Source of the DNA: Eledone cirrhosa
Lineage: Eukaryota
Length of the DNA: 64,000 nucleotides
Direction: 5' to 3'
Assembly (NCBI GenBank): GCA_964016885.1
Contig: OZ024740.1
Location: 339,636,001 to 339,700,000, forward strand
The position numbers and the translations under genes are program-made. A model generated the notes under the pieces. That model did no database searches, was not told the origin of the DNA, and saw nothing but the letters and a program-made list of their open reading frames with translations. This document shows, piece after piece, positions 16,982-59,850 of this stretch (the stretch's first letter is position 1; every line of letters begins with the position of its first letter).

Positions 16982-17577
16982 ATGGTGCTACTGGTAACAT
17001 GTATCCCAGTACAACCTGTCTCATGGTCGGGTCGTTGGCGACTAAACTGGCAACCCCACCAAGGTTTCTTGGTGAGGAGGGTGACTTTGGACATCCTGCA
17101 GGACTAAAAACAAAACCTGTCAAAGACAAAGGAACTCTTAAGAGTCAATGGCCATCCAAAATCACCGGGAGAGATGACCCCTTAGCCTTTGTCAAGGCAG
17201 AATTCTAGGAGAAGGAAAACTCTGATATAACACCTGCAACCCTGATGGTATCCAATGATGTTGACTTGTTCTTCTTTTTGGTAAATATCATCTTGCTTAA
17301 GAGAGTGGGACTGGCTTTGTGCAGTGCCTTTGCTCACTATAAAAGCTTCACGGCACAGGCATTGCTTTATATCTGGAGATCTCTCTGCACTTGTCGTCAC
17401 ATGGTACCATGGGCCCAGCACTATGTGTCAATAATTGTCACAGTTGTAGTGTTTGTACCAGAGTTTTCAAGTCGCTGGCTGGACTAAAAATTCACACTCG
17501 TTCAGCGCATCGGTGGGGTTCTCCTACATGGATATAAAGTAGTGGCTGTACTCGAAAATGAGTTGGCAGCCACCATG
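16982..17577 (+). mobile_element. Non-coding retroposon with RTE 5'-UTR-like motif and (ATGT)n tail
   Basis: Contains ctaggagaaggaaaactctga. Homologous to 32731-33222 and 61832-62183. Confidence 0.65.
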
Positions 17578-24882: not shown

Positions 24883-25099
24883 TAATTCTGTTATGAAACC
24901 ATGTTCAAATTTGCTCAGATTCTTCCAAATATTATTTAAGAAAGTCATAAGAAAATATTAACCAAAGTGTCTAGAAGCAACCCTGGTTCTAAAATACAAA
25001 TTTTTTTGTTTTAAAGTGTTCATATTTATCTAGAAACCTTCCAACATAATTTTATGTAAAATCCTTTAAGTTATCTTACAAACACCAGCTTCATCATAA

Positions 25100-28081
25100 T
25101 CAGCATCATCATCATCATCATGGTTTTACGTCCGTTCTTCCACGCTAGCATGGGTTAGACGGATTGTCCTGTTGTGGGCAATGTCTGGTCGGCTGACCAT
25201 GCCTTGCTCATACAGGAACTGATTTGGCTTGATTTCTACAGCTGGATGCCCTTCCTAACACCAACCTCATTTACAGTGAGTGCTGGGTGCTTTTACATGG
25301 CGCCTACACGTCCACTTTACAGTGTGGGCTGGGTGCTTTTTTGTCATGGCACCTCCACGACCACCTTGCAGTGGGAGGGTGTGGGGGCATATTGTTTATA
25401 TGCTTCAGCTTGTACTCATGGGAGGTTGGGTACTCTGTATTACTGCGTGACGCCAGAGGTCACGGTCGTGTGTCATCGCCTTTGAGAGGTGTTTTGGGGT
25501 AAGGTCGGCTTTTATCACCTCATCCCAGGTCATCTTGGGTCTCCCCACTCCACGGTTTCCATCGACTTCTAGTGCTCTGCACCTTTTTATGCAGCTGTCA
25601 TCCTTCATACGCATCACATGTCCATACCAACGCAACCGCCTCTCCTGCACACAGCATTTGATTCCTCTTATGCTCAGTCTCTCTCTCAATTCATTTATGC
25701 TTTGTCGTTCGTGTATATTACAATTACACATCCATCGGAGCATGCAGGCTTCGTTTCTCTCTAATCTATGTAAGTCTTCCACCTTCAGCGCCAAGGTCTC
25801 ACTACCATGTAACATTGCTGTTCGGATACACGCATCATACAGTCTGCCTTTCATTTTGAGGGAGAAGCCTTTTTCAGCTAGCAGTGGTAGTAGTTCCCTG
25901 AACTTCCTCCATCCCGTTCTTACCCTAGTTATTGTACTTTCTGAACACCCACCTCCGCTGCTAATTCGGTCACCTAGGTAGCAGAAGCTGTCCACTGTCT
26001 CTACAGAGCCCTCCCAGAGATTGGTGGTACTTGTTTCCTGTGGCTGTTTGCTGCTTGCTGTCCCAGTACAGCTGCTGCATGTGAAGCCTACATTCTTAAT
26101 TAAGCTTCCTGAGATCCCGCTACATCTCTTGTGTACCCATTGTTTGCATTTGGGGCAGAGAATGGAGTTCCTACCTACACCTTTCCTACATACTGAGCAA
26201 GGCCATTTCCCTGAGGGGATCTGGGTTCTGTTTTCTCGTCTACTTACAAGGACGTTAGTCTTTGTCATGTTGACTTTGAGACCCTTTCTTTCTAGTCCCT
26301 GCTTCCAAGTTTGGAATTTCTTCTCTAGTTCTACCATAGATTCAGCTATAAGTGCAAGGTCATCAGTATACAGGAGTTCCCATGGGCATCCGGTCTTAAA
26401 CTCCTCCGTTATTGCCTGCAGGACTATGATGAAGAGGAGAGGGCTAAGAACAGAGCCCTGGTGGACCCCAACCTGTACGCTAAATTCCTCACTATACTCA
26501 TTGCTAATACTAACCTTGCTGACTGCTCCCCTATACATGGCTTGTACAGCTTTCACAAGCCACTCATCTATTCGTAGTTTTCTAAGAGCCCACCAGATTA
26601 CAGCACGTGGAACTCTGTCAAAGGCTTTCTCGAGATCGATGAATGCCAGGTAGAGTGGCTTACTTTTAGCTAGATACTTTTCCTGTAACTGCCTCACAAG
26701 GAAGAGGGCATCAGTGGTGCCTCTTCCTGGTACAAACCCAAATTGCATCTCATCTAGTTTCACCCGGTCCCTAATCAACTGTGCTATAACTCTTTCTGTT
26801 ACTTTCATGACCTGGTCCATCAGCTTTATACCTCTATAGTTTCCTCTATCTAGTGCATAACCTTTACCTTTGTAGCAGTTGACAATGATGCTACTGCACC
26901 AATCTTTTGGTATGACACCTTCTAGTATTACCTGGTTAACAATACGTGTGGTTATAGTGTGACATACAGACCCAGGTGCCTTCAGCATCTCGGCAGCTAT
27001 ACCCAATGGAACCCTGACTCCAGCCTGACTAGGAGTAGGAAGCTGTCATTCCCTGACGTTATCTCTAGGGATACGGGAATCAGACCGGACCTTGGGGCAG
27101 CGATGGGGGACAGGGGATTCTGGGGCATGAGAGTGAGATCCATCATCTCGACAGTAGTCGACGAGTGATGATGATGATACCCGATGGACCGGTTGCCTTC
27201 CCCATCTTCATATCTTTGATTGCCTTACTTACTACGCTGCTGCTGACTTGTACTGCTGGCCTCTCTATAGGGTCTACTTGGGGTAGGGTCTTTTCTTCCC
27301 ATGCATTCTCCTCATTTAGTAATCTATCATAATGACTCTTCCATGCATCTTTCTTCACAGCACTTGTGAGGGCAAGCTCACCTTTATCATTCCGGATACA
27401 CTTCTCTCCAATGACATCACAATTCTCTCTGACACACTGCCTCGCAATCTTGAACACCTCCTGTTTCTGGTCCTCACGTTGCAAAACATGCTTGAATTTT
27501 CTATCCTCTGCTTCGCTCCTAGCTAAGTATACTTGTCACCTAGCTTCCCTCTTGGTCTCTATGTAATGTACCCTGCTCCCCCAGTTCTTCCATTCTTTCC
27601 ATGCCTGTCTCTTGGCCTTAACGGCCTCATCTACCTTATTGTTCCACCACCAAGTCACTCTCCTCCTGCTTGTGGTCTTACTCCAGCCACAGACCTCATC
27701 CGTCGCCTCTAGTAAGTTATTTTTTAGGAACTCCCAGTTCTCTTCTACATTGAATGTCTATATCTGTTCTTCTTTACTGTCGTAGGCGTTGAGTAAAATA
27801 TCTTTAAATCTGTTATTGGCTGAGGGGTCTTTCAGCTTCCAGATCTTTCTTCTCCAGATTGGCCTCTGTTTCCAGATTCGTCTAGTTCTGACTGTGAGGT
27901 CGCTGACAACTAAGCTATGTTGGGAGGTACATTCCTCACTAGGGAAGGCTTTTGTCTTTACGACCGTCCATCTGTCACGTCCTCTGATGAGGATAAAATC
28001 TACCTGACTGGAATGCTCCCCTGATCTATAGGTGATCAGGTGGTTGTCGGGTTTTTTGAAGTTTGTGTTACATATCGACAT
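25100..28081 (-). mobile_element. RTE LINE family A1, second copy, 5'-truncated and inactivated (YADD to YTDD, stops, nested insertion)
   Basis: Near-identical to 42756-45880. ORFs 27758-28081, 27143-27484 and 25405-27006. (CAT)n tail on + at about 25100-25120. Confidence 0.95.
27011..27176 (+). mobile_element. 3' end of a different RTE-type LINE nested antisense in the A1 copy
   Basis: Encodes ...PDSSLTRSRKLSFPDVISRDTGIRPDLGAAMGDRGFW...* followed by (GAT)n. Flanked by a 12-bp TSD atacccRatgga (26999-27010 and 27177-27188). Confidence 0.88.
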
Positions 28082-29103: not shown

Positions 29104-29287
29104 GCGGCGGATTGGCAGTATCGGTAGAGGGTCAGACGCCATGCTTTGCAGCACAGTTACGTCCCTTTACGGACTGAGTTCAAATCCCGCCAAGGTTAAC
29201 TTTGCCTTTCATCCTTACGGGGTCGATAAAATAAAGTACCAGTAATACACTGGGATAATTGCTGGCTTTGTGCCAAAATTAGAAACA
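29104..29287 (+). mobile_element. tRNA-derived SINE family A, full length
   Basis: A box tggcagtatcgg, B box gagttcaaatccc, core gcctttcatccttacggggtcgataaaataaagtacc. 16-bp TSD attaattagaaataat (29085-29100 and 29288-29303). Confidence 0.92.
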
Positions 29288-29413
29288 ATTAATTAGAAAT
29301 AATTTTGAAAATAATAATGAATTTCAAGTGATTTAATAATACAACTAATTTTTCCATTATTAAGTTTGATTATGTTTAGAACATAATTTAACAAGGTTCT
29401 TATATAGAATTAT

Positions 29414-29598
29414 AATTGTTTCTATTTTAGGCACAAGGCCAGCAATTACCCAGTACATTACTGGTACTTTATTTTATCGACCCCGTAAGGATGAAAGGCA
29501 AAGTTAACCTCGGCGGTATTTAAACTCAGATCATAAAGGGACGTAACTCTATGCTTCAAAGCATGGTGTCCGACTCTCTACCGATACTGCCAATCCAC
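29414..29598 (-). mobile_element. SINE family A
   Basis: Reverse complement of 29104-29287. Confidence 0.92.
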
Positions 29599-31404: not shown

Positions 31405-32490
31405 GCTTAGAGGTTAGAGTTGCAAGGTTGTGGTTTCAATTCATGACAACGCATTGTGTCCACTCACTGTGGCAAAAATGAGCTGTACTTGTAATTCAAA
31501 GGACCGGCCTTGTCACATTCAGTGTCATGCTGAATCTTCCTGAGACCTACATTGAGTGTACATGTCCATGTAATGATCAACTTCTTGCTGTTTTGTTGTT
31601 TGGACAACTGGAACACTTGTCCTCAAAACCATCACAATAATGTTTGATTAGTAAATTAGTGGTTCAAGAAAATGAGATTGTTAAAATAAGTACCAGATAC
31701 GAAAAGTACGTATTGGGGTCGATATGATGCACTAAATCCTTTTAAACCCATGCTCCAGCATGACAGTAGACTGAAACCAGTAATAGAAAGTAAAGCAAAA
31801 GTCATATCTTTTACAGTGAATTTATTTTAAAACCTATTTCTTGCTTTTAGCATTTTCAGAAATTATCAAACATACTTTTTCCAATGGAGACAGAAAATTT
31901 CTAAACTTACTTTTATAGTCCATTATCAGCTCTTACATTGGTGCATTTTTAATGTGAACTAATGTAAATATTGCTTCATATTTTTAATAATGGATATATA
32001 AGTATTTATCTCTATAAAACAAATCCATCTTTCTATTCTGTATAGCAAGTAAATATACTGTATCCATTATTTTTGTCTAAATAGCTCCATGTTAACATTA
32101 AAAAACAAAACAATATATCCATATTATATTTTCCTCTATATGTTCACATAAATTATTTATGGATATGCTTACTTGTGCTATTCTCAATTCTTCACAAATC
32201 TTTTTTTACATTAAACATAAAACAGAAATTCTTGATTTGGAATTTGTGTTAGGAATTAGATTCCAATAAAATCCATGATAGTCAGAGGATTTAAAGATAC
32301 AGTCTCATTCAAACGGACTCAATGATGGCACTTAACCTACCAAACTAAATGCCATATATATTTTTTTTCTCTTTGCTTACCTATTCTCATTGTCATTCTC
32401 CAGCTTCCATAAAATTCCTACTTAATAAAATTATTATATCAGGTATATAAATGTTGCTAACATTTCATGTATACTTAATGTGCTTATATC

Positions 32491-32549
<59 letters not shown>

Positions 32550-32730
32550 GGATGTGTATAATCATAGATACATACACAGTGTGGTATAAATGAAACGTTT
32601 GTGAAATTTATAGACATTATATAATAATTTTATTAAGTAATAATTTCATGAAAACTAGGAAGCAGTAATGAATTATATGCCTGTCTGTCTGTATGCATGT
32701 CTGTCCATCTGTCTGTGTGTATGTATATTT

Positions 32731-41421: not shown

Positions 41422-42004
41422 CATAGTAGGACCCCGACGCCTGAGCTCAAGCCGTTTCGACGGGGTCCTACTTGTTCCTATTACCCACTCTACTAGCCTA
41501 AGTATTGAGTACTTTGGTGCGTTATGGTCCATCTGGTTCCTTACCACATTTCCTTCGTTATATATATATACATATATAATAACTAGAAATTGATTAACAT
41601 ATAAATAAACATGAATAATCACAGGAGATAATTTTTACAAGTGTGTAACCACACATAGCTAGGTAGGTAACTAAATAAAGTTGACCAGAACTTCAAAAAT
41701 AGATACCTTATAATATGATTAATCTTCCTTGTATATATTCCATTAAAGAAATATATTTCACCAATTAATCGGATGGTAAACCACGGAAGTGGAGACTTGG
41801 ATTTTCAACAAGGAAGAAGTTCCAGCAATCCGTGTTTACACTTCAAGTTCAAATCAGCGACTGGCCAGCAACACGTGGTATATCTATTAGAAATACACAC
41901 ATCATACTAGCTTCGTCCCAGTGGCGTGAATAGGATTATCGACAACTAGAAACAGCAGTCGAGTCCTTTCAACAGAGTTAGCTCTACAATTAAGGAGCCG
42001 TATT

Positions 42005-42268
42005 TATATATCTATATCCAAAATTAAGATAAATCAAATGAATTTAATCTAAATCAAAATTATGGGTGTCGTGCCAGAAAGACATGCGGCATATTTCCCG
42101 CAAAATAAGCTCTAAGATTCTAACAAGTAGGTCCGAGCATTTTATAATAACAGAATCTTAGAGCTTATTTTGCGGGTGATATGGCGCATGTCTTTCTGGC
42201 ATGACACCCATAATTTTGATTTAGATTAAATTCATTTGATTTATCTTAATTTTGGATATAGATATATA
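42005..42268. repeat. Long inverted repeat (117-bp arms, 30-nt spacer) abutting (TA)n
   Basis: 42005-42121 versus 42152-42268, with few mismatches. Confidence 0.92.
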
Positions 42269-42344
42269 CATATATATATATATATATACATATATATAGG
42301 AACCAGTAAGACCCCGACAGCTGAGCTCAAGCCGTTTCGACGAT

Positions 42345-42732: not shown

Positions 42733-43154
42733 GGGAATTTTACCCGCCTTAGGGTAAAAAACCCGACAACCACCTGATCACCTATAGATCAGGGGAGCAC
42801 TCTAGTCAGTTAGATTTTATCCTCATCAGAGGACGTGACAGATGGACGGTCGTAAACACAAAAGCCTTCCCTAGTGAGGAATGTACATCCCAACATAGCT
42901 TAGTTGTCAGCGACCTCACGGTCAGAACTAGACGAGCCCTGAAACAGAGGCCAACCTGGAGTAGAAAGATCTGGAAGCTGAAAGTCCCCTCAACCAGTAA
43001 CAGATTTAAAGATATTTTACTCAACGCCTACGACAGTAAAGAAGAACAGATAGAGACATTTAACGTAGAAGAGAACTGGGAGTTCCTAAAAAATAACTTA
43101 CTAGAGGCGACGGATGAGGTTTGTGGCTGGAGTAAGACCCCAAGCAGGAGGAGA

Positions 43155-44396
43155 GTGACTTGGTGGTGGAACAATAAGGTAGATGAAGCAGTCAAGGCCA
43201 AGAGACAGGCATGGAAAGAATGGAAGAACGGGGGGAGCAGGGTACATTACATAGAGACCAAGAGGGAAGCTAGGCGACAAGTATACTTAGCTAGGAGGGA
43301 AGCAGAGGATAGAAAATTCAAGCATGTTTTACAACGTGAGGACCAGAAACAGGAGGTATTCAAGATTGCGAGGCAGTGTGTCAGAGATAGTTGTGATGTC
43401 ATTGGAGAGAAGTGTATCCGGAATGATAAAGGTGAGCTTGCCCTCACAAGTGCTGAGAAGAAAGATGCATGGAAGAGTCATTATGATAGATTACTAAATG
43501 AGGAGAATGCATGGGAAGAAGAGACCCTACCCCACGTAGACCCTATAGAGGGACCAGCAGTACAAGTCAGCGGCAGCGTAGTAAGTAAGGCAATCAGAGA
43601 TATGAAGATAGGGAAGGCAACCGGTCCATCGGGTATAGCTGCCGAGATGCTGAAGGCATCTGGGTCTGTAGGTCACACTATAACCACACGTATCGTTAAC
43701 CAGGTAATACTAGAGGGGGCCATACCAAAAGATTGGTGCAGTAGCATCATTGTCAACTGCTACAAAGGTAAAGGCGATGCACTAGATAGAGGAAACTATA
43801 GAGGTATGAAGTTGATGGACCAGGTCATGAAAGTAACAGAAAGAGTTATAGCACAGCTGATTAGGGACCGGGTGAATATAGACGAGATGCAATTTGGGTT
43901 TGTACCAGGGAAAGGCACCACTGATGCCCTCTTCCTTGTGAGGCAATTACAGGAAAAGTACCTAGCTAAAAGTAAGCCACTCTACTTGGCATTTGTCGAC
44001 CTTGAGAAAGCCTTTGACAGAGTTCCACGTGCAGTAATCTGGTGGGCTCTTAGAAAACTAGGAGTAGATGAATGGCTTGTGAAAGCGGTACAAGCCATGT
44101 ATAGGGGAGCAGTCAGCAAAGTTAGGATTAGCAATGAGTATAGCGAGGAATTTAGCGTACAGGTTGGGGTCCACCAGGGCTCTGTTCTTAGCCCTCTCCT
44201 GTTCATCATAGTCCTGCAGGCAATAACGGAGGAGTTTAAGACCGGATGCCCATGGGAACTCCTGTATGCTGATGACCTCGCACTCATAGCTGAATCTATG
44301 GTAGAACTAGAGAATAAATTCCAAACCTGGAAGCAGGGACTAGAGAGAAAGGGCCTCAAAGTCAACATGACGAAGACTAAGGTCCTAGAAAACTAG
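43155..44396 (+). CDS. RTE ORF2 linker and RT, N-terminal part (frame open from 42756; terminated by the duplication junction)
   Basis: ORF track 413 aa with RT motifs through YADD. The stop is created at the junction with the duplicated segment. Confidence 0.9.
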   Translation: MTWWWNNKVDEAVKAKRQAWKEWKNGGSRVHYIETKREARRQVYLARREAEDRKFKHVLQREDQKQEVFKIARQCVRDSCDVIGEKCIRNDKGELALTSAEKKDAWKSHYDRLLNEENAWEEETLPHVDPIEGPAVQVSGSVVSKAIRDMKIGKATGPSGIAAEMLKASGSVGHTITTRIVNQVILEGAIPKDWCSSIIVNCYKGKGDALDRGNYRGMKLMDQVMKVTERVIAQLIRDRVNIDEMQFGFVPGKGTTDALFLVRQLQEKYLAKSKPLYLAFVDLEKAFDRVPRAVIWWALRKLGVDEWLVKAVQAMYRGAVSKVRISNEYSEEFSVQVGVHQGSVLSPLLFIIVLQAITEEFKTGCPWELLYADDLALIAESMVELENKFQTWKQGLERKGLKVNMTKTKVLEN

Positions 44397-44430
44397 GAGT
44401 AGATGAAAACTAGGAGTAGATGAATGGCTT

Positions 44431-45579
44431 GTGAAAGCGGTACAAGCCATGTATAGGGGAGCAGTCAGCAAAGTTAGGATTGGCAATGAGTATAGCGAGG
44501 AATTTAGCGTACAGGTTGGGGTCCACCAGGGCTCTGTTCTTAGCCCTCTCCTCTTCATCATAGTCCTGCAGGCAATAACGGAGGAGTTTAAGACCGGATG
44601 CCCATGGGAACTCCTGTATGCTGATGACCTCGCACTCATAGCTGAATCTATGGTAGAACTAGAGAATAAATTCCAAACCTGGAAGCAGGGACTAGAGAGA
44701 AAGGGCCTCAAAGTCAACATGACAAAGACTAAGGTCCTTATAAGTAGACGAGAAAACAGAACCCAGATCCCCTCAGGGAAATGGCCTTGCTCAGTATGTA
44801 GGAAAGGTGTAGGTAGGAACTCCATTCTTTGCCCCAAATGCAAACAATGGGTACACAAGAGATGTAGCGGGATCTCAGGAAGCTTAATTAAGAATGTAGG
44901 ATTCACATGCAGCAGCTGTGCTGAAACAGCAAGCAAACAGCCACAGGAAACAAGTACCACCAATCTCTGGGAGGGCCCTGTAGAAACAGTAGACAGCTTC
45001 TGCTACCTAGGTGACCGAATTAGCAACGGAGGTGGGTGCTCAGAAAGTACAATAACTAGGGTAAGAACGGGATGGAAGAAGTTTAGGGAACTACTACCAC
45101 TGCTAGCTGCAAAAGGCTTCTCCCTCAGAATGAAAGGCAGACTGTATGATGCGTGTATCCGAACAGCGATGTTGCATGGTAGTGAGACCTGGGCGCTGAA
45201 GGTGGAAGACTTACGTAGATTAGAGAGAAACGAAGCCTGCTTGCTCCGATGGATGTGTAACAGTAATATACGTGAACGACAAAGCATAAATGAATTGAGA
45301 GAGAGACTGAGCATAAGAGGAATCAAATGCTGCGTGCAGGAGAGGCGGTTACGCTGGTATGGACATGTGATGCGTATGAAGGATGACAGCTGCATAAAAA
45401 GGTGCAGAGCACTAGAAGTTGATGGAAACCGCGGAGTGGGGAGACCCAAGATGACTTGGGATGAGGTGATAAAAGCCGACCTTACCCAACTACACCTCTC
45501 AAAGTCAATGACACACGACCGTGACTTCTGGCGTCACGCAGTAATACAGGGTACCCGACCTCCCATGGGTACATGCTGA
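44431..45579 (+). CDS. RTE ORF2 C-terminal part: RT palm, PHD-like finger, thumb and C-terminus
   Basis: QGSVLSP, YADD, C-x2-C...C-x2-C-x4-H-x2-C...C-x2-C, FCYLG, RRLRWYGHV. Confidence 0.9.
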   Translation: MKAVQAMYRGAVSKVRIGNEYSEEFSVQVGVHQGSVLSPLLFIIVLQAITEEFKTGCPWELLYADDLALIAESMVELENKFQTWKQGLERKGLKVNMTKTKVLISRRENRTQIPSGKWPCSVCRKGVGRNSILCPKCKQWVHKRCSGISGSLIKNVGFTCSSCAETASKQPQETSTTNLWEGPVETVDSFCYLGDRISNGGGCSESTITRVRTGWKKFRELLPLLAAKGFSLRMKGRLYDACIRTAMLHGSETWALKVEDLRRLERNEACLLRWMCNSNIRERQSINELRERLSIRGIKCCVQERRLRWYGHVMRMKDDSCIKRCRALEVDGNRGVGRPKMTWDEVIKADLTQLHLSKSMTHDRDFWRHAVIQGTRPPMGTC

Positions 45580-46162
45580 AGCATATAAACAATATGCCCC
45601 CCCCCCCACCGCAAGGTGGTCGTGGAGGTGCCACGGCAAAAAAGCACCCAGCCCACACTGTAAAGTGGACGTGTAGGCGCCACGAAAAAGCACCCAGCAC
45701 TCACTGTAAATGAGGTTGGTGTTAGGAAGGGCATCCAGCTGTAGAAATCAAGCCAGATCAGTTCCTGTATGAGCAAGGCATGGTCAGCCGACCAGACACT
45801 GCCCACAACAGGACAACCCGTCTAACCCATGCTAGCGTGGAAGAACGGACGTAAAACGGTGATGATGATGATGATGATGATATATATATATATATATACT
45901 ATAAATTATGTCCATAGAATCATTTGATAAGATATATACTCCATTTCCTCCCTCTCCCAATTAGCATAATCAACCACACAAAGAAACAATTAAACCAGGC
46001 TATAAGATTAAAAGGCACCTATGAAGAAATAATAGATAAATAAACAACAGCCATCTATTCGCAATCAACAGCCATAGAATATTTACCCAACATATCAATA
46101 GCACGTGGAACTCGATTATACATATGTATATACATATATATATATATATGTATATATCTATC

Positions 46163-47944: not shown

Positions 47945-48230
47945 ACATACATACAAATTTAAGGTATCAAAACATATCAATTATGTATGATATTTGTGCT
48001 TCTCAATAGAAAAGCTCTATGGACATTTGTCCAGAGCATCAGTAATTCAAATTAATAGATATATGTAGATATATAGAGAGAGAAAGGACCATATATCTTC
48101 ATAGAACACAGTATTTTGAATATAAACAAAAAAATTATAATTCCTTATAGCGCTATTTCATGATTTGAAGGACCAGAACTTAAAATCAATCCAAGCAATC
48201 GATCATCGATCAATAGCTATCAATATATAT

Positions 48231-53852: not shown

Positions 53853-54088
53853 CAACAAAAAGCATCCAGTCACCACTGTAAAGTGGTCGTGTAGGAGATA
53901 GTAAAAAGGCTCCCAGTCTACACTGTAAATGTGGTTGGTGTTAGGAAGGGCATCCAGTCATAGAAAACCTGCCAGAAACAGTTTTGTACAAGTGAGACAT
54001 GGACTCCCGACCAATCTCACCTCAAGTGGGACAAAACTGTCCAACCCATGCTAGCGTGAAAGATTCACGTTAAATGATGAGGATGATA
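53853..54088 (+). mobile_element. RTE (A2-like) 3' UTR fragment
   Basis: ggttggtgttaggaagggcatcc...ctcaagtgggac...acccatgctagcgtg...gatgaggatgat, shared with the 57000-57200 UTR. Confidence 0.8.
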
Positions 54089-55055
54089 TATGTAAATAAT
54101 AACATAAAGTGAATTATGGGAAACTTGTCTTCATACTCATTATTGCACCTATACTCTATTGTGCACTACCCAAATATTCTCACAGCACGTTTTGTAGATG
54201 CATTTGATGTGGAGTGCTTTATACTGCTTATACCATTATTTATTAGTTGGAGTGTTGCAAACGCAACTGCAATTAATTAACTATTTAATAAGACAATATA
54301 TATATGTGTGTGTGTGTGTGTGTGTAACTACAATTACAGGTGGTGCTCCATTCGAAGCACTCATTGCTGTTACAACATCCATCACTTAGATTGTACTCTG
54401 AGCTGATCCATATCAAAACAATTGTAATAAAACTTGTACATATGCTGCAACACTGCCTTCGATTCTACTTATTCTATATAAGTCTAATAATATTTTAGAT
54501 AGTCCAATATTAAGGCATATGCCCTATTATTAGGCTATTTTCTGCAGTCAATATATGGTGAAAGCTTCTAATTCTATTTTCAAAATTATCAATCACCACC
54601 ATATTCTAATTCACACATGGTTAGATATCATCATCACCGTTTTATGTCTGTTTTTCCTTGCTTGTGTATACATACATATATATACAGAAAGAGAGAGGGA
54701 TGTCCAAGCCTTGTTAGCAGGGAAATAGGACATTAAAACGACTATGATATATATATTGGTTATTAGAAAAACAAGTATTAATAAATGTATCAACAAATGA
54801 ATCTCATTTTTCTAATAACCAATATATACTATATTACTCCATGGATTACTCAATATTGGATCGATTTATCTTGGTAACATAATTCATATCAACCAGGTAA
54901 TAAACAGTTCCATTGATTACATAGACACAACTAAACTGGTAAGTTGTCTTTTCCTTTTTGACTATGCACATCCAAGTCACCCTACAATACAAAAGTGTGA
55001 GGTTGCCTACAAAAAGTGGATACATGTATTTTCTCTCTCATATATATATATATAG

Positions 55056-55875
55056 ATAGATAATTTAATATATCTACTAACATAAGCGCACAGATGTACG
55101 CTAATGCCAGCAAATACACAGGTTATGTCATAGTACCTAGGTGGTTCGATGCAGGAGGATGCAGAACAATAATATAAAAGACGTAAAATAAGAAAATTTA
55201 AAAAAAAATTTTAAAAAATTAACTTACTTACTTAAATTTTCACTCCAACTAATTAGTTTCTGCAATGGGATAAAGACAGTTACGTAATGAACTGTTGAGA
55301 ATTTCATTGCGTCATCAGGGAGGTCTATTCTCAGCCAAGTCTCCAGGCAATGCGCGGACACTGGGGACTCATATAAAAATAATAATAATTCGGTAAATGG
55401 AACAGCTATCGGGGACTGAATTCCAAGCACTGAAAATTCTCGCTGCCGCTGGTCAAATGGCCGATTCTAAAGAATCAATCACGTGACACTGAGGCTAGTC
55501 GGTAGGAATGGGATGGTAAGATGACAGACGCCTACTAACACCCCAAAAAAAAATTTAGTAGTGGTTTTGGCAGGTTTGCTCGACAAATCAGTGATTTGGA
55601 GATAAATATAGATAATTTAATATATCTACTAACATAAGCGCACAGATGTACGCTAATGCCAGCAAATACACAGGTTATGTCATAGTACCTAGGTGGTTCG
55701 ATGCAGGAGGATGCAGAACAATAATATAAAAGACGTAAAATAAGAAAATTTTAAAAAAAATTTAAAAAAATTAACTTACTTACTTAAATTTTCACTAATT
55801 AGTTGGAGTGAAAATTTAAGTAAGTTAATTTTTTTAATTTTTTTTTTAAATTTTCTTATTTTACGTCTTTTATAT
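55056..55875 (-). mobile_element. Non-coding Penelope-like/retrozyme-like element: 552-bp unit, 189-bp terminal direct repeat, about 80-bp inverted copy
   Basis: 55056-55244 is repeated at 55608-55796, and 55794-55875 is the reverse complement of about 55172-55257. Hammerhead motif inside; (TA)n on both flanks. Confidence 0.8.
55243..55322 (-). ncRNA. Type I hammerhead ribozyme motif
   Basis: Minus strand: cucc-CUGAUGA-cgcaaug...cauugca-GAAAC-uaauua-GUU|ggag. Stem I cucc/ggag, stem II gcaaug/cauugc with inner hairpin acaguu/aacugu, palindromic stem III aacuaauuaguu. Confidence 0.82.
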
Positions 55876-56088
55876 ATATATATATATATATATAGTTCAA
55901 GGAGACAACAAACAGAAGTACAAAAAGTCTTATTAGTTTCATGCTTTATATGGAAAGGGGGAAAGAAAGTTTGACATGTTGGACTTAAGCCCTTTTTCAG
56001 GAGTACAAGATAGAAACAGGATCACAAAGGACAAACAAAATTAAAGGAGGTCCAAGTAAAGAAGAAAAAACAAAAATAAAGAGTAAGT

Positions 56089-56130
<42 letters not shown>

Positions 56131-56978
56131 AGAAAGGTAAAGAGAGAGAGCGAGAGAAAGTTTTCCCTTCATTTAAATCAGTGTAATACATGAGGTTTAA
56201 CAAATGTTTATCACTACTGTTGTTAGAAATCAGACGTTTCTGTGAACTGTTGATCACAACAATCTTGATAGTATGACTTCAATATTCTTACCTAAGTTGA
56301 GGAGAACTAAAATGGTGTAATATGCTGCAGATTAAATCAATCAGCTACATAACTTCTGGCAGAAAGAATTATGTGCATAGTAATTGAAAATCAATATTTT
56401 TCAAATAGATAATGTTGTGATTTGATTTTCTTACTAGCCTCACTCAGTCACTCATTTTAAGATCTATCATCAAGCTGTTCAATGCTTGTTTAGATTGGAC
56501 TTCACAGAGACACCATCAGTATTAGTATGAATGCTTCCCAGCAGGGTACAGTGGTTTCAGAAAAAAGATTCCTTTAATGATTTTAGTCATTGAACAACAA
56601 CTATATTAGGGCATAGAAAATGTATTCAAATTTTTTTGTTTTAGTGATATTGGTTCTTGTTCTTATTTTACTGATGTCCATTTATCAAAAGTTTATTACC
56701 TTTGAACATAAAGGGATTCAATTTGACGTATTATTTCACACTGGTATAGGACAAACACATATACACACATACACATGTATATCATCATCGATATCATCAC
56801 CATTTTACGTCTCTCCTCATGCTTGCATGGCTTTAGACAGGTCAAAAGATTGTGTATTGCTCATACATTCCATTTCAGCATAGTTTCTATAGCTGGATGT
56901 CTTTTCCAATGATACCACCACTACCACCTGACAAGTGGACTTTTTTGTGGTAACAGCACTACAATTTTACAGGATGTG

Positions 56979-59546
56979 TCATCATCATCATCATCATCAA
57001 CGTTTAACGTCCGTGTTCCACGCTTGCATGGGTTTGGACGGGGGTAGTCCCACTTGAGGCAAGAGTGATTGTCTTGCTCGCATAGGACTGTCTGGCAGGT
57101 TTTCTACAGTTGGATGCCCTTCCTAACACCAACCACATTTACAGTGTGGGTCTGGGAGGTTTTTACCGTGTTGCCTACACGGCCACATTACAGCGTGGAC
57201 TGTGTGTTTTTTTGTCGTGACACCTACACGATCTCATTTGTTTCGGCCTGGATGGCGCGGCACCAACATAACTTTACATAGAACGGGGTGGTGTGGATGG
57301 GGTGGGGGTGGCGGCGGGAGGGGTGTATTTTGTTAGATATGCCTACTGGCAAGGCGGGTCTTCTCTGTTACTGAGTACCGCCAAAGGTCACGGTCCAGTG
57401 ACATTGTCTTGGAGAGGTGTAAGTGTGTGAGGTCGGAGTTTATCAGCTCATCCCATGTTTTTCTAGGTCTGCCTATTCCGTGGCTACCGTCTATCTTTAT
57501 TGCCCTGCACTTTGTAATACAGCTATCGACTTTCATGCGCATCACGTGTCCATACCAACGCAGCCTTCTCTCGAGTAAACAACATCTGATCCCTCTTATC
57601 TCTAATTTTTTCCTTAGTTCGTTTATGCTTTGCCGTTCACGTATATTACTGTTACACATCCAGCGGAGCATGCAAGCTTCGTTCCTCTCTAGTCTGCGTA
57701 TATCCTCTGCACACAATGCCCAGGTCTCACTACCATGCAACATTGCTGTTCGTATGCAGGCATCGTACAACCTGCCTTTCATTTTTAGGGAGAACCCTTT
57801 AGCAGCTAATAGTGGTATAAGCTCTCTGAACTTTTTCCAACCAGTTCTGACTCTAGCTACAGTACTTTCAGAGCACCCTCCCCCACTGCTGATTTTATCG
57901 CCCAGGTAACGGAAGCTGTCCACTATTTCTATAGAACCCTCTGCGCAATTGAAAGAGCTAGTATTTTGTGGGCACTTGCTGCTACTTATTGCACCAGAAC
58001 ACCGGCCACATGTAAAGTCTATGTTCTTAGTTAGCTTACCTGTGATCCCACTACATCTTTTATGCACCCATACTTTGCATTTAGGACATAAGATGGAGTT
58101 TCTACCTACGCCTTTCCTACATACCGAGCACGACCATTTCCCAGAAGGGACCGCCGCCTTGTTTTCTTTCCTACAAACTAGAACTTTGGTCTTAGCCAGG
58201 TTAATTTTAAGTCCTTTTGACTCTAGGCCGTGCTTCCATGTTTGGAATTTCTTCTCTAGCTCGGCCATTGATTCCGCTATGAGTGTCAGGTCGTCTGCGT
58301 ATAGGAGTTCCCATGGGCAGCCTGTCTTGAACTCCTCTGTTATAGCCTGAAGGGCAATAATAAATAGTAGGGGGCTGAGAACAGAGCCCTGATGGACGCC
58401 AACTTTTACGCTAAACTCTTCACTATATTCGTTGTTAATTCTAACCTTGCTGACTGTTTCTTTATACATGGCTTGTATAGCCCTCACAAGCCATTCGTCA
58501 ACGCCTAGTTTTCTAAGAGCCCACCAGATAATGGAGCGGGGGACTCTGTCGAAGGCTTTCTCCAGGTCGACAAAAGCTAAGTAGAGGGGCTTACCTTTAG
58601 CTAGGTACTTCTCCTGTAGTTGTCGTACTATGAAAAGAGCGTCTGTGGTGCTTTTGCCTGACACAAACCCGAACTGCATTTCATCTAGATCAATTCTCTC
58701 TCTGATTAGTTGCGCTATTACTTTTTCCGTGACCTTCATGACCTGGTCGATTAATTTAATGCCTCTATAGTTACTCCTATCTAGGGCGTCTCCTTTACCC
58801 TTATAACAGTTAACGATGATGCTGCTATGCCAGTCCTTCGGAACAACCCCATTCTGTACGACTTGGTTAACTATGCGGGTGACCATGTTGTGTCCCACCG
58901 TGCCAGATGCCTTCAGCATCTCAGCAACTATTTCCGAAGGCCCAGCCGCCTTACCAGTCTTCATATCCTTGATTGCCTTACTTATTATACTCCCCTCGAC
59001 TAACACTGCTGGTCCCTCTATCGGGTCGATAAGGGGGAGACTGTCTTTCTCCCATTTATTCTCCTCATTTAGTAGCCTTTCATAGTGACACTTCCAAGCT
59101 ACCTTCTTATCAGTGTCGGTGATGGCAAGTATGCCATCATCGTTAAGTACACACTTCTCCCCGACAATATCACGGTTTTCCTTGACGCATTGCCTGGCAA
59201 TCCTGAACACCTCACGTTTTTGGTCATCGCGTTGTAGAACATGCTTGAACTTTCTTTCCTCAGCTTCCCTTCTTGCTAAGTACACTTCTCTCCTAGCTTC
59301 CCTCCTGGCCACTTGATAGTCTACTCTACTTCCCCCATCCCGCCATACTTTCCAAGCCTGCTTTTTGGCCTTAATTGACCCTTCCACCCTATTGTTCCAC
59401 CACCATGTTACTCTCCTCCTGCCTACAGGCCTGCTCCAGCCACAGACTTCGTCTGTCGCCAACAGCAGGTTTGCTTTCAGAAATTTCCACTGTCCCTCTA
59501 TATTGTCCGATTCTAGATGCTCTTCCTTACTGTCGAAAGCATCAAG
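56979..59546 (-). mobile_element. RTE LINE family A2 (diverged relative of A1), 5'-truncated, RT ORF uninterrupted
   Basis: 709-aa ORF 57333-59462 with all RT motifs and the same Cys/His finger. Distinct 3' UTR and (CAT)n on + at 56979-57000. No endonuclease domain retained. Confidence 0.96.
57333..59462 (-). CDS. RTE ORF2 (linker, reverse transcriptase, PHD-like finger, C-terminus)
   Basis: NYRGI, QFGF, DLEKAFD, QGSVLSP, YADD, FRYLG, RRLRWYGHV, GRPRKTW. Confidence 0.92.
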   Translation of the reverse strand: MATDEVCGWSRPVGRRRVTWWWNNRVEGSIKAKKQAWKVWRDGGSRVDYQVARREARREVYLARREAEERKFKHVLQRDDQKREVFRIARQCVKENRDIVGEKCVLNDDGILAITDTDKKVAWKCHYERLLNEENKWEKDSLPLIDPIEGPAVLVEGSIISKAIKDMKTGKAAGPSEIVAEMLKASGTVGHNMVTRIVNQVVQNGVVPKDWHSSIIVNCYKGKGDALDRSNYRGIKLIDQVMKVTEKVIAQLIRERIDLDEMQFGFVSGKSTTDALFIVRQLQEKYLAKGKPLYLAFVDLEKAFDRVPRSIIWWALRKLGVDEWLVRAIQAMYKETVSKVRINNEYSEEFSVKVGVHQGSVLSPLLFIIALQAITEEFKTGCPWELLYADDLTLIAESMAELEKKFQTWKHGLESKGLKINLAKTKVLVCRKENKAAVPSGKWSCSVCRKGVGRNSILCPKCKVWVHKRCSGITGKLTKNIDFTCGRCSGAISSSKCPQNTSSFNCAEGSIEIVDSFRYLGDKISSGGGCSESTVARVRTGWKKFRELIPLLAAKGFSLKMKGRLYDACIRTAMLHGSETWALCAEDIRRLERNEACMLRWMCNSNIRERQSINELRKKLEIRGIRCCLLERRLRWYGHVMRMKVDSCITKCRAIKIDGSHGIGRPRKTWDELINSDLTHLHLSKTMSLDRDLWRYSVTEKTRLASRHI

Positions 59547-59850
59547 TATATATATGTATAATCCATGTTAGCATGGAAAAATAGACGTTAAACAGTAATG
59601 ATGATGATGATGATATATATCAGAAGATCCCGTTAAGGGTTAAAGCAGCGATTCTTTGCTTAAACTTTAATCTGTTATTTTAATAAATATATATACATAT
59701 ATATATATATATACATAAATACACACACACATATATATATATATATACATAAATACACACACACACATATATATGTATGTACATATGTGTGCATGTATAT
59801 GAGTAATGTTGAACAATAAAATAAGACAAGGTTTAGGAGTTGATTAATAC

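Follow-up and report, generated by a model that had tools for sequence, protein, structure and literature searches.

The interval 55056-55875 of the window (the whole 64,000-nucleotide stretch of Eledone cirrhosa DNA analysed here) is a young copy of an abundant non-coding 552-nt repeat. On its minus strand it carries a type I hammerhead ribozyme which is real as a structure and is extended, not minimal, with a predicted cleavage site. The best reading, with a probability of about 0.7, is that of a non-autonomous retrozyme-like element which would have been copied from both ends of a break in (TA)n by a Hydra-clade enzyme, using a template that was uncut or circular.

Anatomy of the insertion and structure of its ribozyme

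The features of the insertion are listed below by coordinates, strand where one applies, and description.

55040-55055: left (TA)n target, with (AT)7 plus AG as a possible 16-bp target-site duplication
55056-55796, minus: long arm, covering 1.34 monomer units of 552 nt and ending on the outside at position 191, counted from the cut site
55056-55244, minus: 3' copy of the 189-bp direct repeat, pseudo-LTR-like
55056-55170, minus: region between the two putative start points; long G·U-rich hairpin, folding on the ribozyme strand only
55144-55167, minus: bulged hairpin A (monomer 80-103), with the outer end of the short arm 5 nt to its 5' side; second copy at 55696-55719
55230-55340, minus: extended type I hammerhead, predicted cut 55247/55246
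Hammerhead core, minus: CUGAUGA 55318-55312; GAAAC 55260-55256; GUU 55249-55247
Hammerhead helix I, minus: Ib 55340-35/55235-30; Ia 55322-19/55246-43
Hammerhead helix II, minus: 55310-05/55267-62; inner hairpin IIb 55295-90/55281-76; C·A mismatch 55311/55261 at the base
Hammerhead helix III, minus: 55257-55/55250-48 (3 bp)
55247-55258: 12-bp palindrome that spans stem III and in which the two arms join
55296-55333, minus: predicted 7-bp pseudoknot, 55333-55327 with 55302-55296 (loop 1 to stem II internal loop)
55452-55494: block common to divergent subfamilies; E-box-like CACGTG, short hairpin; loose ends at 55452, 55464 and 55494
55579-55601, minus: bulged hairpin B (monomer 198-220), with the outer end of the long arm 7 nt to its 5' side
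55608-55796, minus: 5' copy of the 189-bp direct repeat, with the same minority allele as the other copy (G at 55148 and 55700)
55794-55875, plus: short inverted arm; outer end at about monomer 71-75; spans the cut site at 55804/55805; ends in the palindrome
55876-55895: right (TA)n, holding the other half of the possible target duplication at 55880-55895

The initial annotation had reported a 552-bp non-coding unit with a 189-bp terminal direct repeat, (TA)n on both sides, and an inverted copy of about 80 bp starting in the stem III palindrome; all of these are confirmed. The direct repeats (55056-55244 and 55608-55796, period 552) differ by two mismatches, at 55200/55752 and 55212/55764, both inside A/T runs. 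The inverted arm is 82 bp long, or about 0.15 unit, and matches 55172-55257 at 93% with two substitutions and one 4-nt deletion. Positions 55040-55055 are identical to 55880-55895, and the terminal G alone sets this possible 16-bp duplication apart from plain (TA)n.

The longest stop-to-stop frames in 55056-55875 are 71-80 aa, and thus the unit is non-coding. A Pfam search with the three longest element frames gave no match; neither the frame listing nor Pfam shows the RT plus GIY-YIG ORF of an autonomous Penelope-like element within the insertion. The 552-nt monomer folds well (z -3.66 linear, -3.85 circular), and folding of 55056-55170 is confined to one strand (z -4.56 minus, -0.63 plus). 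The block of about 40 bp at 55452-55494 lies 130-170 nt upstream of the ribozyme and is kept in subfamilies with differing flanks; across 55464-55494, record 19 of run X5 has 0 differences to the element. The block may be a promoter.

There is only one complete hammerhead core in the window. A strict type I descriptor likewise has a single match, which is the hammerhead of the element, and one match in 200 dinucleotide shuffles of the window. The order CUGA, GAAA, cut site is that of type I, and the CUGANGA/GAAA/NUH core is present. Core, order and descriptor thus bear out the type I hammerhead first noted on the minus strand with a cut at 55247/55246. It is not a minimal form, and has a C·A mismatch in place of a Watson-Crick pair at the base of helix II (C55311·A55261, invariant in reads), a long stem II insert and a predicted pseudoknot. 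The order of cut site, GAAA, CUGA that marks the non-circularly permuted (SGC) hammerhead is not present, and covariation supports helix II of the observed order. An alternative parse which takes the nearer CAUUACG as the helix II partner, followed by GUAAC, was also rejected; it has no matching helix I and a broken core, and covariation backs the far partner. The covariance-model search suggested in the initial annotation was negative: Rfam finds no hammerhead at E up to 5 in 54000-57000, nor at gathering score in the whole window.

Taken by itself, the ribozyme region shows no folding advantage over shuffled sequence (z +0.98). Pairing probability for stem III is 0.12-0.13, and the active ribozyme fold lies about 4.5-5 kcal/mol above the minimum-energy fold, with the pseudoknot left out of the count. 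The low stem III pairing and high-energy active fold count against activity of the monomer. Pairing of the palindrome with a second copy is worth -10.8 kcal/mol, which fits the published dimer model.

Family copies and ribozyme variation in reads

Parts of the element are found in 15 runs under 12 organism labels; no RNA run is listed among the matching data, which carries no information on expression. The read comparison covered X1, X4, X5, X6 and X8 of these 15 runs, plus the raw-read RAD run X16. In X1, summed contig depth is about 1e5 in the unit and 6.3 in the adjacent unique flank, a ratio that is not a copy number; the unique flank has 0 differences to the window. Most unit bins in X16 hold from several hundred to about 1500 raw reads, compared with 0-8 in the flank, and again these values are not copy number. 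The prediction of further family copies is therefore borne out by abundant reads under several species labels. Most copies are 90-99% alike. Both internal joints, 55246/55247 and about 55607/55608, are deeply covered in X1, which means that the 552-nt unit recurs as such. In an X4 contig, (TA)n abuts 55610 (equivalent to 55058), within 2 nt of the 3' end of the element; this is a separate copy. Over 136 nt, the ribozyme region of X5 differs by one substitution; that of X8 has a single gap and no substitution across 115 nt. Such near-identical regions under other labels could reflect close kinship, transfer or contamination. Metagenome and viral contigs gave 0 matches.

The allele G is found at 55148 and 55700, in both repeats, and X16 reads at 55700 have A in 1099 of 1216 cases. 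The two direct repeats are identical outside the A/T tract and share an allele carried by fewer than 10% of reads, a pattern which fits a single RNA around which copying passed more than once, or an array of uniform sequence as the source. The A/T tract is present in three copies, each with one private change, and thus the short arm is no nearer in sequence to the 3' repeat. Three separate passes fit these changes slightly better than a fold-back copy of the 3' repeat would; later mutation could give the same pattern.

True ends of the element lie in or beside stretches masked in the read alignment (55024-55070, 55190-55237 and 55742-55903). Pile-ups in RAD run X16 at 55251, 55303, 55386/55390 and 55614/55617 were rejected as element ends; all fall on AATT, and a restriction origin is inferred. 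The pile-up at 55251 is potentially misleading, being 4 nt from the cut site and on AATT. RNA editing is not supported here, as no single transition is in excess in X1 (A>G 20, G>A 19, C>T 16, T>C 10; flanks included).

None of the 15 core columns of the ribozyme varies at 4% or more, compared with 17 of the 86 other columns (Fisher p 0.05, weak alone). More telling changes are found in stem II of organism C, in which three contigs were phased by matching depth values, tying changes in the 3' strand to loose 5' strands; in two of the three, the 5' strand is positioned by homology and CUGAUGA is only partly visible. Where the element has GCAAUG/CAUUGC, these contigs have GAAAGG/CCUUUC and GUAAUG/CAUUAC, each with six of six pairs, and UUAAGG/CCUUAC with five of six. 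Stem covariation, which had been named as a check, is thus found in stem II as phased compensatory changes. One organism C contig also has a C-G to U-A swap in the inner hairpin. In the distal helix Ib, G·U pairs change to A-U in 332/738 and 559/737 reads. A one-base deletion in helix Ia gives a 5-bp helix in 237/754 reads, with a wobble version in 209/749. Overall, helix I has one-sided and length variants with pairing kept; helix III, with 3 unvaried bp, gives no covariation information. Wherever divergent loose ends extend as far as the UUCUC that follows helix II, it is retained. Conservation and complementarity point to the predicted pseudoknot (55333-55327/55302-55296), for which no two-sided covariation was seen.

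Summed X1 contig depth is about tenfold higher over the 3' half of the ribozyme (55244-55275) than over the 5' half. Loose ends near 55244-55275 carry several unrelated stem II inserts, as of sister subfamilies on one ribozyme scaffold.

Arm ends, the joint and the mode of copying

Each outer end of the insertion falls within UAUAU and is followed by a hairpin with a 2-nt 3' bulge and GA; this holds for the sense strand only. UAUAU occupies monomer positions 71-75 and 189-193, with the bulges at 98 and 216; either pair is 118 nt apart. A hairpin descriptor based on published Hydra hairpins has three matches in the element and one elsewhere in the window. Its chance rate is 0.0014 per 552 nt and 0.335 per shuffled window, values which are flattering, as the descriptors were composed after the hairpins of the element were known. 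The match elsewhere (48011-48039, minus) is a lone Hydra-type bulged hairpin close to the first hairpin of Hydra-1_Ajap, with no hammerhead core nearby; it is possibly a remnant of another Penelope-type insertion. Among six Hydra consensus sequences of PMC8557442, the hairpin is seen by eye in three (Hydra-2_Amil, Hydra-2_Ajap and Hydra-1_Ajap). Hydra-1_Ajap has it twice, 61 nt apart, and its consensus ends just 5' of the first. The hairpin of Hydra-1_Crog is imperfect, and none was recognised by eye in the consensus sequences given there for Hydra-1_Amil and Hydra-1_Obim.

In one folding context, the lower stems of the hairpins have a pairing probability of 0.02-0.03 and the upper stems 0.76-0.97; both lower stems form in the circular monomer fold. 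Two of 13 variants in the hairpin region break a pair, and a third does so unless its partner also changes. The first bulge is UU, not UC, in most family reads. The gap of 116-118 nt between starts gives a one-sided extension of 116 nt at this one locus, compared with a published tail of 30-40 bp. Initiation just 5' of the twin hairpins likely accounts for the two arms, a reading drawn from one locus.

The joint between the arms corresponds to a perfect fold about the middle of the 12-bp palindrome from which the 6 bp between two ACT repeats are missing. A 3-nt overlap, ACT (55794-55796), is common to both arms; the long arm ends at monomer position 3, or at 6 if the common ACT is given to the other arm. 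The initial annotation had placed the start of the upstream repeat at 55796, 2 nt from the equivalent of the cut, and this is correct only if the overlap is assigned there; otherwise the start is 55793. In the inverted arm, 8-11 nt derive from the 5' side of the cut site. Two intact crossings of this site are present in the insertion, at 55246/55247 in the long arm and at 55804/55805 in the short arm, and hence the template was uncut or re-ligated wherever it was crossed. Going by its sequence, the joint could equally be a run-off at the cut end with 3-nt microhomology, or palindrome annealing with a 6-bp deletion.

These arrangements include traits of Penelope-like elements: a partial tandem with direct pseudo-LTRs, and an inverted 5' copy which overlaps the direct repeat with a palindrome at the joint. 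Palindromes at inverted junctions and overlap of inverted and direct repeats are typical of Penelope insertions (PMC3846280). For Poseidon in vitro, ribozyme mutations had no effect on insertion, and cleavage is unnecessary for copying (PMC11167929). The proposal that the insertion is the cDNA of a ribozyme-processed RNA from a non-autonomous Penelope or retrozyme family is partly supported, as regards family, hammerhead, stem II covariation and Penelope anatomy. The cleaved 5' end does not stand in the same way, as the cut site is crossed twice and the joint can be read in two ways. Release of a 552-nt monomer, also proposed, cannot take place at this locus, which has one complete hammerhead; it could hold only for tandem family members.

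The two arms, the ends 5-7 nt 5' of the hairpins, the crossing of the cut site and the palindromic joint are directly visible, and from these the steps of copying are inferred. Tandem source copies would be transcribed, and the hammerhead would sometimes cut, probably aided by the pseudoknot or by dimer pairing of the palindrome; cleaved monomers would possibly be ligated into circles. A partner protein, the borrowed reverse transcriptase/endonuclease of a Hydra-clade Penelope-like element, would nick both (TA)n strands about 16 nt apart and prime from both break ends, one cDNA starting immediately 5' of hairpin B and the other immediately 5' of hairpin A. The long arm would then extend for 1.34 units and the short arm for 0.15 unit. 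The cDNA ends would join at the palindrome, either by 12-bp annealing and loss of 6 bp, which is narrowly favoured, or, with slightly lower odds, by 3-nt pairing of an end left where synthesis ran off a cleaved 5' terminus. The odds are about even that the template was a circle or an uncut multimer.

Copying from a single primer would produce a similar structure by another route. Synthesis would run off at the cleaved 5' end (55796-55798), fold back on its own cDNA through ACT/AGT, copy 82 nt and join the right (TA)n through ATAT microhomology. In its favour, the long arm stops 2-5 nt from the cut position, where run-off from a cleaved end would place it; the 3-nt overlap needs no deletion to fit exactly, and self-priming has been proposed for palindromic junctions in Penelope (PMC3846280). 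However, the geometry of the short arm and hairpin A is the same as that of the long arm and hairpin B, which is not expected of a copy made from DNA. The short arm is also without the private change of the 3' repeat, and the long arm still crosses one cut site intact. A single primer is for these reasons considered unlikely.

Two further explanations are each given a very small probability. According to one, the element is a satellite-like DNA repeat which was spread and inverted by recombination or palindrome fold-back, and its hammerhead is what remains, inactive, of an old Penelope end. Compensatory stem changes, an unvaried core across divergent subfamilies and strand-specific folding all argue against this, as do ends at Hydra-type hairpins with a possible target duplication; the weak stem III, the negative Rfam result and the other long palindromes in the window are what it has in its favour. 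The other explanation, no more probable, holds that this is an internally deleted Hydra-clade element with a pseudo-LTR, moved as a linear transcript and lacking any tandem or circular retrozyme phase; it differs from the best reading in the circular phase alone. In its support, a single complete hammerhead is present here, the cut site, hairpin A and hairpin B follow one another as at the ends of coding Hydra elements, and animal retrozymes have been argued to derive from pLTRs (bioRxiv 10.64898/2026.07.22.740005). Against it, the unit has no coding remnant and both internal joints are deeply covered in X1.

A more far-reaching form of the retrozyme-like, two-ended reading is tentative and rather doubtful. 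It would make the element a member of a new family of circular ribozyme RNAs of about 550 nt, nearly unchanged across several animal species. A Hydra-clade enzyme would start at two hairpins from both break ends, the stem III palindrome would both pair RNAs and join cDNA arms, and the ribozyme would be a pseudoknot-stabilised type I variant missed by Rfam.

Relation to known elements and the surrounding window

By sequence, the element appears to resemble a Penelope-mobilised non-LTR retrozyme, and would be of a kind already known. As described in PMC7229834 and bioRxiv 10.64898/2026.07.22.740005, non-LTR retrozymes share with it a non-coding unit, one type I hammerhead, many copies, a short palindromic helix III and a structured monomer; 552 is within their range of 51-972 bp. 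Penelope elements are proposed in the same texts as the movers of non-LTR retrozymes. The element differs from them in its inverted second arm and its 51-nt stem II domain with a predicted pseudoknot. It also differs from the definition of an active retrozyme in that two ribozymes are specified and this locus has 1.34 units and one complete ribozyme. The axolotl HHR_Amex2 is listed with a U·U mismatch at the helix II base. Eight of nine Xenopus retrozyme dimers were without in vitro cleavage.

Likeness to the Hydra clade (PMC8557442) includes a (TA)n target, a hammerhead near the 3' end, and a partial tandem plus inverted copy. Insertion into (TA)n and a hammerhead of canonical order, both traits of the clade, are found in the element. 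It should be noted that a preference for microsatellites is not unique to Hydra, since Naiad and Neptune likewise show it. Hydra-clade hammerheads have GUU in 10 of 26 table rows and often a mismatch at the stem II base, U·U in many; the C·A at this position in the element (an extra A before GAAA) is also seen in PLE-X1_cBra. Differences from the clade are the absence of an ORF, starts 116-118 nt apart and a far longer stem II. The clade also has characteristic protein motifs (RWK, DKT and CxCX5C, with no CCHH); the element encodes no protein. Eleven short element motifs had no direct sequence match in the Craig et al. 2021 supplement (PMC8557442).

Other Penelope elements share parts of the arrangement. 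Poseidon_Ac has two internal starts, a one-sided tail, extension on both strands and an AT-rich target (PMC11167929), and in Penelope of A. vaga the inverted and direct pLTRs overlap and their junction holds a palindrome (PMC3846280). Both differ from the element in being coding and in having a 30-40 bp tail, and no twin bulged hairpin is described for them in the accessible parts of these papers. Hammerheads reported in 2011 (PMC3088659) resemble that of the element in a 4-5 bp helix I, a long helix II with an extra base after A9, and a palindromic helix III suiting dimers; about 40% of hammerheads use a stem I-II pseudoknot. To these the element adds an extra A before GAAA, a distal helix Ib and a predicted pseudoknot whose partner lies in an internal loop of an extended stem II.

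Twin hairpins combined with two-ended priming were not found in the literature searched; the supplements of PMC7229834 and the bioRxiv preprint could hold related families. The words ribozyme, hammerhead and retrozyme are all absent from the accessible part of the repeat paper on O. vulgaris (PMC13282606), and a further set of 20 papers contains no mention of hammerhead ribozymes. The origin of direct and inverted repeats in Penelope-like elements, and mobilisation of animal retrozymes by Penelope, are stated as open questions in PMC8557442, PMC11167929 and PMC7229834. Into a protein-free unit of 552 nt the element packs candidate cis signals for such a process, namely two start hairpins, a cut site and a joining palindrome, and the unit could act as a minimal template in vitro. 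It also adds a hammerhead variant which is supported by covariation and which Rfam misses.

The window otherwise consists of microsatellites and RTE-type LINEs. In a Pfam search of 147 of the 197 short window frames (at least 55 and under 300 aa), there was no Penelope fragment and one weak C2H2 match; this is a plus-strand frame at 17343-17534 with a zinc-finger match at E 1.5e-4, below the Pfam cut-off. Three long imperfect palindromes (29109-29596, 32402-32656 and 42001-42272) have arms 77-88% alike and hold no CUGANGA-stem-GAAA core. The arms of the first derive from a repeat with several dispersed copies in the window, and the second is centred on (TA)n. RTE-type LINE copies are present at 25099-28057, 42756-45881 and 57333-59567, with frames of up to 744 aa and an RVT_1 domain; a PHD-type finger is present as well in many relatives. 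Within the copy at 42756-45881, a segment of 352 bp is duplicated in tandem. A second high-copy repeat (55904-56031) begins 9 bp right of the insertion.
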